Below are positions 37,794 through 41,015 of a stretch of DNA of 41,105 nucleotides, one piece after another (within the stretch, counting starts at the first letter, position 1; every line of letters starts with the position of its first letter). The position numbers were made by a program, and so were the translations under genes. Location of the stretch: positions 1-41,105 of the forward strand of contig JAADFO010000014.1 of assembly GCA_013152815.1 (NCBI GenBank), read 5' to 3'. This DNA comes from Nanobdellati archaeon. GTDB lineage: Archaea; Nanobdellota; Nanobdellia; Woesearchaeales; JAADFO01. Under the pieces are notes generated by a model. It did no database searches. It was not told where the DNA came from and was given only the letters and a program-made list of their open reading frames with translations.

Positions 37794-38831
37794 ATGGGGT
37801 TGGCCATCAAGGATCTGCTGGAACACCATGAAGTGTCCTACGACCAGCTGAAAGGAAAGATCCTCTGCATCGACGCCTACAATCTTCTGTATCAGTTCAT
37901 CACCACCATACGGGCGAGAGATGGGACGCTCCTGATGGATTCTCAGGGACAAGTAACATCCCACCTCATCGGGCTGTTCTCACGGCTCTCGAATTTCCTG
38001 CAGAAAGGTCTCAGGATGTGCTTTGTCTTCGACGGCGAGGTCCCTGAACTGAAATCCAGGGAGATCCAGCGACGAAAAAAGGTGAAGGCCGAAGCTGCCA
38101 GGCAGTACGAAGAAGCAAAGAAACAGGAAGACGTGGAAGGCATGAGAAAATATGCTGGCAGGACGTCCCGGCTCACGAAAGAGATGGTCGAGGAAGCCAT
38201 CGGTCTCATCGAAGCCTTCGGCATGCCCGTTGTCCGAGCACCTTCAGAGGGAGAGGCCCAGGCAGCGCACATGACAAGGAAAGGTGATGCCTACGCCACG
38301 GTATCGCAGGATTTCGACAGCCTCATGCAGGGAGCGCCGAGACTCATAAGGAACCTTTCCATCACCGGCAGGAGGAAACAGGCAGGCAGGTTGGCGTTCC
38401 AGACGGTGAAGCCCGAGGAGTTCCTGCTCAGGGAGAATCTGGAGCGACTGTCCATCGGTCCGGAACAGCTTATCGCGTTGGCCATGCTTGTGGGAACGGA
38501 TTATAATGTCGGCGGCATCAAAGGCATAGGACCGAAGAAAGCGTTGATCCTCGTCAGGAAGTACGATGAGTCCTCCTTCGGAAGCCTGTTCAAAGAAGCA
38601 GCATGGGACGAGCATTTCGATGTTCCCTGGAAAGAGGTCTATAATCTCATCAAGAACCTGCCGGTCACCGATGATTACAAGCTCCGATGGCATGCTCCGG
38701 ACGAGGGACGTATCAGGAAGATATTGGTGGAAGACCATGATTTCTCTGAGGAACGGGTCAATGCGACGCTGGCACGGCTGAAGGAGACCGGGAAGGCAAG
38801 GGCCCAGAAGGGGCTGGGGGAGTTCTTCTGA
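37794..38831 (+). CDS. fen: flap endonuclease 1
   Basis: IDAYNLLYQF, TSHLIG, FVFDG, APSEGEAQAA, SQDFD, VGTDYN, GIGPKKA, PIP box QKGLGEFF. Confidence 0.97.
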   Translation: MGLAIKDLLEHHEVSYDQLKGKILCIDAYNLLYQFITTIRARDGTLLMDSQGQVTSHLIGLFSRLSNFLQKGLRMCFVFDGEVPELKSREIQRRKKVKAEAARQYEEAKKQEDVEGMRKYAGRTSRLTKEMVEEAIGLIEAFGMPVVRAPSEGEAQAAHMTRKGDAYATVSQDFDSLMQGAPRLIRNLSITGRRKQAGRLAFQTVKPEEFLLRENLERLSIGPEQLIALAMLVGTDYNVGGIKGIGPKKALILVRKYDESSFGSLFKEAAWDEHFDVPWKEVYNLIKNLPVTDDYKLRWHAPDEGRIRKILVEDHDFSEERVNATLARLKETGKARAQKGLGEFF

Positions 38832-39856
38832 TGCAGACGCTCAGGATACCGTTGACGAGAGCAGAAGAGGTGAAGCGCTTCCTTATCGGGAACAGCCTGC
38901 TTGACAAGGGATATCGTTTCGACAAGGACGATAAGTTCCTCTATCTACCCATAACAGAAGAAGCTGACCTGAAAAAGAGGTTCCCTGAGACGAGGATAAT
39001 GAGACATGCGCTGCAGCCTTCGAAGAAGAGGCCGGGACTCAGGCAGCTGCTCAGGAAGCGGCTTACGGCGGAAGAATTTGCGCGGCTCAAGACCGCTTTC
39101 GACATGGTGGGGGATATCGCCATCATGGAGATCGATCCTGCTCTCCGAAAGAAAGAGAAGGTCATCGCCAAGGCTCTCCTGGAGACCACGCCAACCATAA
39201 AGACCGTCCTGCGGAAGGCAGAGAAGCATACGGGCGTATTCCGGACCCAGAAGCTCCGGTGGCTTGCCGGAAGAAAGACCAAAGAGGCGTTGTATCGAGA
39301 GAATGGCATCCGGCTCAAGCTCGATGTCGAGAAGGTCTATTTCTCTCCACGACTGTCCACAGAACGGAAGCGCATCGCGCAGCTGATCAGGAAAGGGGAG
39401 GATGTCCTGGTGATGTTCTCTGGCTGCGGTCCCTACCCCTGCGTGCTGGCGAAGAACACCGATGCAAAAAGCATCACCGGCATCGAGATCAACCCTGTTG
39501 CGCATGCCTATGCGTCGGAGAACATCAAGCTCAACAAGCTGATAAACGTCAAGGTTATCGAAGGGGATGTCAGGAAGGTCATGCCAAAGATGAGAACGAG
39601 GTATGACCGCATCCTGATGCCCCTGCCCATGGGTGCAGGTGAGTTCCTTGACCTTGCTCTTGGAGCTGCGAAAAAAGGCGCGACCGTCCATTTTTACGAT
39701 TTTCTCAAGGAAGAGAACATTCCTGCAGCAGCGGTGAAGAAGATCAGGGACGCTTGCAAGAAGACAGGAAGAAGGTGTATCATCAAAGGGCACGTCAAGT
39801 GCGGCCAGTTCGGGCCAGGCATCTTCCGGGTGTGCGTCGATTTCTCGGTTCAGTAG
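38831..39856 (+). CDS. trm5: tRNA (guanine37-N1) methyltransferase, Trm5/TYW2 (Met-10+) family
   Basis: FDMVGDIA, VYFSPRLSTER, MFSGCGPY, EINP, DRILMPLP, VHFYDF. Confidence 0.85.
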   Translation: MQTLRIPLTRAEEVKRFLIGNSLLDKGYRFDKDDKFLYLPITEEADLKKRFPETRIMRHALQPSKKRPGLRQLLRKRLTAEEFARLKTAFDMVGDIAIMEIDPALRKKEKVIAKALLETTPTIKTVLRKAEKHTGVFRTQKLRWLAGRKTKEALYRENGIRLKLDVEKVYFSPRLSTERKRIAQLIRKGEDVLVMFSGCGPYPCVLAKNTDAKSITGIEINPVAHAYASENIKLNKLINVKVIEGDVRKVMPKMRTRYDRILMPLPMGAGEFLDLALGAAKKGATVHFYDFLKEENIPAAAVKKIRDACKKTGRRCIIKGHVKCGQFGPGIFRVCVDFSVQ

Positions 39857-39859
39857 ACT

Positions 39860-40006
39860 TCAGTACAAGAGAGTTCCGATGACGATGAGGATGCCGAAAA
39901 GGATGGCCAGGACAAGATAGTGATAGTCTGGCTCGGGTTCAGGTTCGGCTTCGGGAAACAGTCTCTTTTTCTCGGTCTCTATCGACCGTCGGTCGTAGCT
40001 GATCAT
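39860..40006 (-). CDS. 48-aa tail-anchored membrane microprotein (not in the ORF track)
   Basis: Manual translation MISYDRRSIETEKKRLFPEAEPEPEPDYHYLVLAILFGILIVIGTLLY. Convergent with trm5. Confidence 0.55.
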   Translation of the reverse strand: MISYDRRSIETEKKRLFPEAEPEPEPDYHYLVLAILFGILIVIGTLLY

Positions 40007-40116
40007 CGATCATCAAGATGGGGGTTCTGTACGGTCTTTTATGGTTTTCCACCTTCTGCTCTGAACAATCGCTTTTTCTCCATAACATTTAAAACAAGAA
40101 GATACTCATGAAGGAA

Positions 40117-40171
40117 TTGCATGCGATGACGGGGTGAACACCCGTCGAGCTTCGGCGATGACATACGGATG
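40117..40171 (+). ncRNA. 5' part of a second, interrupted copy of the box C/D-like RNA
   Basis: 40126-40171 matches 40265-40310 at 45 of 46 nt. TTTAAAA box at 40088-40094. The 3' end is replaced by a hairpin element. Confidence 0.55.
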
Positions 40172-40172
40172 C

Positions 40173-40197
40173 CCTCGAAAATCAGAGATTTTCGAGG
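40173..40197. repeat. perfect hairpin CCTCGAAAATC-AGA-GATTTTCGAGG (REP/MITE-like)
   Basis: 11-bp stem. A related CGAAAAC-TCT-GTTTTCG hairpin lies at 40418-40434. Confidence 0.75.
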
Positions 40198-40253
40198 TGC
40201 CAAAAAAGCTCATTTTCTCGATATGTTTATAAGACAACAGATATCACCCAGGG

Positions 40254-40330
40254 TGACGTGTACAATGACTGGGTGAACACCCGTCGAGCTTCGGCGATGA
40301 CATACGGATGTAACTAAAGAGTACACGTCA
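40254..40330 (+). ncRNA. box C/D-like guide sRNA with two kink-turns
   Basis: 10-bp terminal stem TGACGTGTAC/GTACACGTCA, C-like ACAATGA, D'-like TCGA, GC-UUCG-GC tetraloop, C'-like GCGATGA, D-like AAGA. TTTATAAG at 40226-40233. Confidence 0.7.
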
Positions 40331-40460
40331 ATCTTAACATGAGCTTTTTTGAGCATAACTAAAGAGCACATACCCTTCACCAACCGAGCAATTTCCATCA
40401 CGCATTTGCCAGCATGCCGAAAACTCTGTTTTCGTGCATAACTGAAGAAAAAACGCTTTT

Positions 40461-40670
40461 TCAAGAAACAGAGACCAAGTTCTCAACGAGGATCTGCCTG
40501 AGCAGGTCAGGATTGCGTTCCTTCACAAACAAGAGTTCAAATCCAATTACCTGATTTTTCTTATCAAAGTCGATGATCGTATTCTCATCTACTTCTTTTG
40601 TATGATCAACGTTCCCTTTCCGCAATGTTATATACACTGCATCGGCATCTTGATCGTAGCGGATTTTCAT
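40461..40670 (-). CDS. DUF2283 family putative antitoxin
   Basis: MKIRYDQDADAVYITL...IIDFDKKNQVIGFELL. Confidence 0.88.
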   Translation of the reverse strand: MKIRYDQDADAVYITLRKGNVDHTKEVDENTIIDFDKKNQVIGFELLFVKERNPDLLRQILVENLVSVS

Positions 40671-40672
40671 GT

Positions 40673-40882
40673 TTAGAGATAAAAAGAGGTTATTACTTTT
40701 ATATGCTTTTCCTTTACATAAACTACCTTTAAGCTCAGACCATTCAATCTTTTTGTGGCATAACATTTCTTTCCCACACGCATGATATCATCAGGAAACT
40801 TGATAGTCTCCTTGATCCATGTCAGATGTATCTTTCGTTCACGAATCTGCTCATTTGCATGAAAAGTGAAGATGATATCCAT
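40673..40882 (-). CDS. DUF4258 family putative toxin
   Basis: IIFTFHANEQIRERKI...LKVVYV...IKVITSF, paired with the DUF2283 gene. Confidence 0.82.
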   Translation of the reverse strand: MDIIFTFHANEQIRERKIHLTWIKETIKFPDDIMRVGKKCYATKRLNGLSLKVVYVKEKHIKVITSFYL

Positions 40883-41015
40883 CCAGAACAAAGAACAACA
40901 ATATTTGAAATGATTATTTGGAAGAATCAAGGAATAAACACAACAATAAGAAGAAAATATGCAAACAACTCGGAAATATCCGATTCTTAACAGACATGCT
41001 CGCAATAATTATGAC

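Follow-up and report, generated by a model that had tools for sequence, protein, structure and literature searches.

What is the compact unit of 77 bases that lies close to the 3' end of the window, that is, of the whole stretch of 41,105 nucleotides that was analysed, and what might its product do? A preliminary description had taken it for an unannotated box C/D-like RNA with two kink-turns (K-turns) and degenerate boxes, whose D' guide would point to U2552 of the 23S rRNA. We consider, with a probability of roughly 0.8, that it is a box C/D-type double-guide RNA gene, predicted to guide fibrillarin to U2552 and likely to U2438. The parts of the unit and of its surroundings are collected in Table 1.

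Table 1. Features of the RNA unit and of the surrounding locus (positions of the window).
Feature	Position	Strand	Basis
trm5-family tRNA methyltransferase gene, upstream neighbour	38831-39856	+	NCBIfam/Pfam
TATA-like TTTAAAA of the older copy	40088-40094	+	sequence
Older copy, 5' remnant, broken inside the D guide	40116-40171	+	45/46 core identity; model match E 2e-6
184-nt palindromic insertion	40172-40355	+	hairpin, then inverted repeats around promoter and intact gene
11-bp hairpin of the insertion	40173-40197	+	fold, sequence
Inverted repeats of the insertion	40201-40216 / 40336-40351	+	enclose promoter and intact copy
TATA-like TTTATAAG, predicted promoter of the intact copy	40226-40233	+	sequence
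Terminal stem, 5' arm (canonical stem of the C/D K-turn)	40254-40263	+	perfect 10-bp inverted repeat
Bulge AAU and box C-like AUGACUG (box 40265-40271)	40264-40271	+	UGA invariant 30/30
D' guide to 23S 2549-2561 (helix 92)	40270-40283	+	N+5 = A40279 opposite U2552
Internal K-turn: D' UCGA, hairpin, bulge GAU, C' AUGACAU	40284-40303	+	4b-4n pairing, covariation
D' box UCGA	40284-40287	+	sequence
GC-UUCG-GC hairpin	40288-40295	+	sequence
C' box AUGACAU, after bulge GAU	40297-40303	+	sequence
D guide to 23S 2435-2444 (helix 74), U40309 bulged	40305-40316	+	N+5 = A40312 opposite U2438
Box D-like AAGA	40317-40320	+	sequence
Terminal stem, 3' arm	40321-40330	+	pairs with 40254-40263; covariation
Older copy, 3' remnant: rest of D guide, box D, decayed stem	40356-40371	+	14/15 identical to 40311-40325
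DUF2283 gene, downstream	40461-40667	-	profile match
DUF4258 gene, downstream	40673-40897	-	profile match

The description was accurate as to the anatomy of the unit: the TATA box at 40226, the 10-bp stem, the geometry of both kink-turns, the cUUCGg loop and the letters of the boxes are all found where it had placed them. The terminal stem is recovered by folding (z -2.39; K-turns are beyond the folding model), and the D' guide of this copy is predicted to be able to fold on itself. Rfam 15 gave no match at gathering score in the window, and the stretch 39900-40500 returned only two matches (E 1.5 and 9.6), both at chance level. A sigma-70 promoter scan was set aside as not applicable to archaea. 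The boxes are degenerate, AUGACUG, UCGA, AUGACAU and AAGA being read in this copy instead of the archaeal consensus (RUGAUGA for C and C', CUGA for D and D'). Two K-turn or K-loop motifs, each with a stem, a U-ending bulge, tandem G-A/A-G pairs and a paired stem II, are present at the sequence level. Since the structure, the guides and the protein partners agree with the class whereas the consensus boxes do not, we classify the RNA as a variant box C/D sRNA.

The unit belongs to a widespread family. BLASTN matched it in 60 of the 401 genomes of the order Woesearchaeales, and a covariance model of the kind that the description had proposed, once built, matched 128 of 150 genomes of the order, corresponding to 123 of the 144 genera sampled. 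It also matched 102 of 150 genomes in a sample of the phylum, drawn mostly from the same order, and 25 of the 27 genomes of a family outside the order (f138). A pattern scan of GTDB yielded at least 120 loci; among the 80 titles listed, 34 were Woesearchaeota, 18 Nanoarchaeota, Nanoarchaeia or Nanobdellota, 21 "uncultured Methanosarcinales archaeon", four "archaeon" and three bacteria. In an alignment of 30 sequences, the invariant columns are UGA of box C, UG of box C', the terminal GA and the guide cores GUGAACACC and GG-n-GUAACU. Two-sided changes were observed in this alignment at 17 of the 18 proposed pairs, including all 10 pairs of the terminal stem; the covariation score was reached by none of 500 shuffles, slid controls scored far lower, and the outcome was the same on 87 rows fitted to the model.

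The letters of the boxes, on the contrary, drift. They were surveyed in 180 distinct units read through the two guide cores as sole anchors, a set that includes kin as well as two loci with bacterial titles and no C' box (L167 and L202), which are probable chance matches. Of the 180, 44 have CUGA as box D and 164 have a box D that ends in GA; the corresponding numbers for box D' are 56 and 134, and RUGAUGA is found in 21 boxes C and 42 boxes C'. The tandem GA pairs, whose loss among homologues would have spoken against the preliminary description, are thus largely kept. The second pair of stem II (4b-4n) is Watson-Crick in 136 of 175 terminal motifs and in 142 of 152 inner ones, versus 58 and 52 expected from base frequencies; with so few consensus boxes, this indicates that the K-turn shape is maintained while the letters change. 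What seems to be recognised in the boxes is a shape (a U-ending bulge, tandem G-A/A-G and one Watson-Crick 4b-4n pair) and not the letters RUGAUGA/CUGA. The cUUCGg loop is variable, widely differing loops being found among homologues, and a TATA-like match lies 15-45 nt 5' of box C in 116 of 175 homologues (raw count). Variable K-turn boxes have already been described for Pyrobaculum (PMC6009581), and Ignicoccus rows also show box variation (PMC4644070, supplement 1), so that degenerate boxes alone are less new than the description implied. Box C' is absent in 28 of the 180 homologues and the terminal GA in 16, both guide cores being kept; such homologues are not predicted by a strict two-K-turn model.

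As the 23S rRNA is unassembled in this genome (G000; 1.49 Mb, 90.8% complete, with the 16S only in part), rRNA targets were read in relatives. The D' guide forms 13 Watson-Crick pairs with helix 92 in two genomes of the same family (G189 and G099), where the target is GGGUGUUCACCCA (13 nt) and N+5 falls on U2552. The antisense match to the UGUUC region of helix 92 proposed earlier thus stands for 13 bp, more than the 9-10 bp or so on which the proposal depended, whereas both end bases of the proposed 15-nt complement are unpaired. The placement of A40279 opposite U2552 was confirmed on the helix 92 of the relatives, and an alignment to the E. coli 23S sets A40279 opposite the first base of the A-loop; the E. 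coli record used (2903 nt) numbers this base 2551, to which 1 was added to match U2552 of PMC4644070. On the 23S of the relatives, the D' guide exceeds the minimum of nine Watson-Crick pairs with N+5 paired that we required of a guide to rRNA, and among 20,000 shuffled guides three had a Watson-Crick run of 13 nt to 23S and 16S. The helix 92 core GGUGUUCAC is present in the 23S of 28 of 29 relatives.

A family in which the target base itself has changed (f44) is informative. In its 24 genomes with a match, out of 40, position 2552 is G in 12 (a set that includes the unpublished G486 and G502) and A in 12. An improved covariance model matches the RNA in 17 of the 40 genomes at E<0.001; 15 of these 17 RNAs were read, and N+5 is C in 14 of them and U in one. 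C is found at N+5 in all five genomes read that have both the RNA and G2552. The single U belongs to G487, which has an A2552 copy of the 23S together with a second 23S of the U2552 type, making its pairing ambiguous; the 11 other A2552 genomes of the family gave no RNA match at E<0.001. In G114 and G196, N+5 is U opposite G2552, a wobble pair. Taken together, the pairing and its changes suggest that the D' guide very probably directs methylation of U2552, and this part of the reading is better supported than the one concerning U2438. As a separate observation, the A-loop begins, at 2552, with G or A instead of U in all 24 matched genomes of f44 (loci L354, L357-L368) and with G in both genomes of f114 (L355, L356); several also carry G at 2448.

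The target of the second guide had been left open, and helix 74 is proposed here. An ungapped search for a target of the D guide gave no consistent site; helix 74 emerges only when one bulge is allowed, with 10 bp (6+4 around the bulge), and it provides the best D-guide duplex in both same-family 23S examined. The duplex alone is not significant, 36 of 150 shuffles being as good and one bulge being needed. The reading of U2438 rests on the invariance of GUAACU, on covariation in f138, on a swap of guides in G125 and on sR14 of Nanoarchaeum equitans. GUAACU is invariant in the alignment (30/30), and the helix 74 core AGUUAC is found in 26 of 29 relatives' 23S. In f138, each of the 22 loci read (of 26) has GUAGCU as its D guide, and the nine genomes with a match all show AGCUAC as target, with C2437, a change that is probably a single evolutionary event. 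In G125 the unit is permuted (L400:1465-1530), with the helix 74 guide before D', the A-loop guide before D and canonical boxes, and each of the swapped guides keeps its N+5 spacing. G038 combines a GUAACU guide with an AGCUAC target, which gives a mismatch at N+4, and the helix 74 guide has been lost in f44 and f54. On these grounds the D guide may direct methylation of U2438, a proposal that we judge reasonably probable.

The proteins required by such a guide, which the preliminary description expected to find in the genome, are all encoded in G000: L7Ae (C3:33192-33467), Nop5 (C5:24714-25346) and, adjoining Nop5, fibrillarin (C5:25550-26194). RlmE (RrmJ/FtsJ) is the stand-alone Um2552 methyltransferase. 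The search for it, also suggested earlier, found no full-length RlmE in G000, where two weak FtsJ matches are short and partial and the RlmE of a relative used as query gave a best E of 0.043.

Across the order, full-length RlmE was found in 24 of 401 genomes belonging to 10 families (unpublished G112 and G370 included), below the NCBIfam cut-off and with an identity taken from the sequence; these searches and those for fibrillarin left out f138 and most of f44. The U2552 guide is present in 2 of the 24 RlmE genomes versus 125 of 140 RlmE-negative ones, counts that include kin, so that relatedness inflates any p-value. In the 24 genomes, a laxer covariance model gave four matches: G084 has RlmE and an intact guide RNA, G297 has RlmE and an intact U2552 guide with a decayed D guide, G097 (a single contig) has RlmE and has kept only a paralogue targeting G2446, and the match in G355 is at chance level. 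Pattern searches in 10 RlmE genomes detected no further U2552 guide; guide-like matches with one mismatch in three of the 10 were rejected, as they lie in open frames and have no second guide. The 140 RlmE-negative genomes, part of the 150-genome set, gave 127 matches, from which G014 and G028 (other guides) and the unpublished G132 (unread) were subtracted and to which G125 was added; some matches above 50 bits were counted unread, all paralogues read scoring below 43. Absences of the guide are imperfect, since G125 was missed by both covariance models. Fibrillarin was found in 139 of the 150 genomes, and the RNA is absent in 8 of the 11 without it; among the 10 RlmE genomes of this set, three gave no match to fibrillarin and one shows an internal TAG. 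Because RlmE genomes mostly lack the guide, the guide RNA likely does here the job that RlmE does elsewhere and replaces it.

A strict C/D scan of G000 returned this unit and one other match, and a relaxed scan with rRNA complementarity returned 12 matches versus 0-9 in five shuffles, the other 11, with stems of 3-5 bp, being indistinguishable from chance. No other rRNA guide was thus detected above chance by these scans, which require both K-turns and use the rRNA of relatives, in a genome that is 90.8% complete. Elsewhere, a paralogue with the same D guide and a D' guide complementary to 23S 2442-2452 (N+5 on G2446) occurs in 12 genomes (L130, L131, L132, L133, L135, L138, L139, L140, L141, L144, L149 and L398); it was not found in G000 by a covariance model search. 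Its target corresponds, by our own offset of 274, to G2720, which is listed for Mma sR101, Mka sR7 and Iho sR414 in PMC4644070. G028 (L118) combines the usual D guide with a different D' guide, and neither a U2552 guide nor RlmE was found in its three contigs.

According to the known C/D mechanism (PMC7994747), the RNA would be transcribed from its own TATA promoter, L7Ae would bind both kink-turns, and Nop5 and fibrillarin would assemble on the RNA. The latter would pair with pre-23S at helix 92 and helix 74, leading to 2'-O-methylation of U2552 through the D' guide and probably of U2438 through the D guide. It is also conceivable that the RNA acts mainly as a folding chaperone, which would pair with helices 74 and 92 of pre-23S and steer the assembly of the peptidyl transferase centre, methylation being absent or secondary. 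The guides are indeed more conserved than the boxes, given the homologues without C' or terminal GA, the paralogue keeps the same D guide, and a wobble occurs at N+5 in f114. Conserved mismatches at N+5 and chaperone roles have moreover been described for archaeal C/D RNAs (PMC6009581, PMC7994747), and RlmE also has a role in assembly (PMC11121408). However, both guides hold N+5 at a fixed spacing, the N+5 base of f44 changes with the one at 2552, and the RlmE genome G097 lacks the U2552 guide and not the G2446 paralogue, which makes a mainly chaperoning RNA unlikely compared with a methylation guide.

The gene lies within a palindromic insertion of 184 nt, which interrupted the D guide of an older copy. 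A 46-nt near-copy of the core (40126-40171, 45/46 identical), absent from the preliminary description, belongs to this older copy, from which the intact one differs at 40270 and in the stem. In G037 (L093) a two-hairpin palindromic element likewise interrupts the D guide, at the identical point, with an intact copy beside or inside the element, whereas most homologues have no such inverted-repeat flanks. Related hairpins are found in G000 at C53:23505, C58:3352 and C71:6979, two of them adjoining tRNA genes. The insertion was also considered as an intron with a bulge-helix-bulge (BHB) motif, a reading rejected because the junctions and the fold of 40110-40375 offer no BHB in the register that restores the D guide. 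The downstream DUF2283 and DUF4258 genes form a pair that we take to be toxin-antitoxin-like.

Could this copy be the silent cargo of a palindromic mobile element, idle in G000? Its position within inverted repeats is what such a reading expects, and MITE-like elements resembling C/D sRNAs occur in Pyrobaculum calidifontis, also with C/D-like sequence in inverted repeats (PMC6009581). Those elements, however, number 15 and combine degenerate inner boxes with orphan guides, whereas here a single intact copy carries conserved guides. No other intact copy was found in G000, the older one being broken. With 82.8 bits, its score is one of the highest in the family, although the copy was itself used for training; its stem and TATA element are intact, and no RlmE was found in G000. 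Silent cargo thus appears very improbable. It is just as hard to believe that the unit acts in cis, binding L7Ae as part of the 3' region of the trm5 transcript and regulating that mRNA. Although 27 of the 49 genomes examined have trm5 no more than 1.5 kb from the homologue, the 22 others do not, the RNA has its own TATA-like element, and a cis element would have no reason to be invariantly antisense to two rRNA sites and to covary with them.

As a methylation guide, the RNA has its closest known counterparts in N. equitans, where sR10 and sR14, seen by RNA-seq, have U2826 and U2712 as predicted targets (PMC4644070, supplement 1), i.e., U2552 and U2438 by our offset of 274. sR10 shares with our RNA the core of the D' guide and the N+5 spacing, and the D guide of sR14 belongs to the GUAGCU type and keeps the same spacing. 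The two guides are nevertheless on separate RNAs in N. equitans, among 26 sRNAs, and on a single one here. Moreover, sR10 and sR14 have near-canonical boxes (terminal D CUGA or CAGA), a short K-loop and little terminal stem, unlike the woesearchaeal RNA with its stem of 4-10 bp, internal stem-loop K-turn, covarying boxes and TATA element. U2826 is also listed for Sac sR7, Mka sR17, Iho sR33 and Pca sR115; guiding of U2552 by an sRNA is predicted in five of seven archaea, N. equitans sR10 included (PMC4644070). The bipartite C/D'/C'/D layout, the N+5 rule, the A-loop target and the proximity of the two targets (114 nt apart here) are shared with archaeal box C/D sRNAs in general. Consensus boxes are, on the contrary, a minority in this family (C 21/180, D 44/180), and the two guides persist together in 123 of the 144 genera sampled (model matches) and beyond the order, whereas most C/D guides are not conserved over long periods (PMC6009581). 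In yeast, the equivalent Um2921 is made redundantly by the snR52 guide and the Spb1 enzyme (PMC11121408). The nucleotide is there, as here, open to a C/D guide or to an RlmE-like protein; guide and enzyme coexist in one yeast cell, whereas they largely alternate between lineages in our data. RlmE would yield the same predicted product, a 2'-O-methyl at 2552, as a protein-only enzyme. In the full-text literature searched, with most subscription papers outside its coverage, we found nothing about woesearchaeotal C/D RNAs or about a mutual exclusion between them and RlmE.

The guide mechanism itself is already known. Um2552 ranks with the best conserved modifications of rRNA, and in E. coli both growth and assembly suffer when it is lost (PMC7994747, PMC11121408). 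If our reading is right, most Woesearchaeales rely for it on a small RNA without an Rfam match, and the conservation of methylation guides can extend above the level of an order, contrary to the usual view that they turn over fast. The lineage would then be a natural experiment on the interchangeability of an RNA guide with RlmE, on the minimum of C/D consensus that L7Ae and Nop5 require, and on ribose methyl versus base, as f44 has G or A at 2552 and the guide follows.

Some homologues have only one K-turn, the other often being replaced by a plain hairpin (e.g., L159, L172, L176, L127, L128, L134 and L146). BHB-like flanks accompany 30 of 175 homologues overall and 19 of the 40 that lack one K-turn (raw counts), while C/D termini usually carry no BHB motifs (PMC7994747). 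The BHB-flanked homologues with one K-turn could be excised and circularised; asymmetric, possibly circular guides with one K-turn would be a kind that has no archaeal description in the literature examined.

In G000, the tRNA-Trp gene (C68:6218-6339, minus strand) has a 48-nt intron with one K-turn-like motif and an AAGA D-like box, and the 6-nt guide of this intron places N+5 on C34. Introns of tRNA-Trp guide Cm34 in other archaea. The AAGA motif fits a machinery that would accept such boxes. We advance, as a tentative and on balance rather doubtful extension, that Woesearchaeales might keep the fibrillarin machinery mainly for this rRNA guide and for the one-K-turn guide of the tRNA-Trp intron, that incoming RlmE might have repeatedly displaced the former, with fibrillarin decaying afterwards, and that the BHB-ended homologues with one K-turn might be asymmetric, possibly circular guides. 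RNA-guided and protein-only enzymes would in that case be interchangeable for one ancient methyl group, selected whatever the base at 2552. Many tRNA genes of G000 contain introns, some of them at unusual positions.
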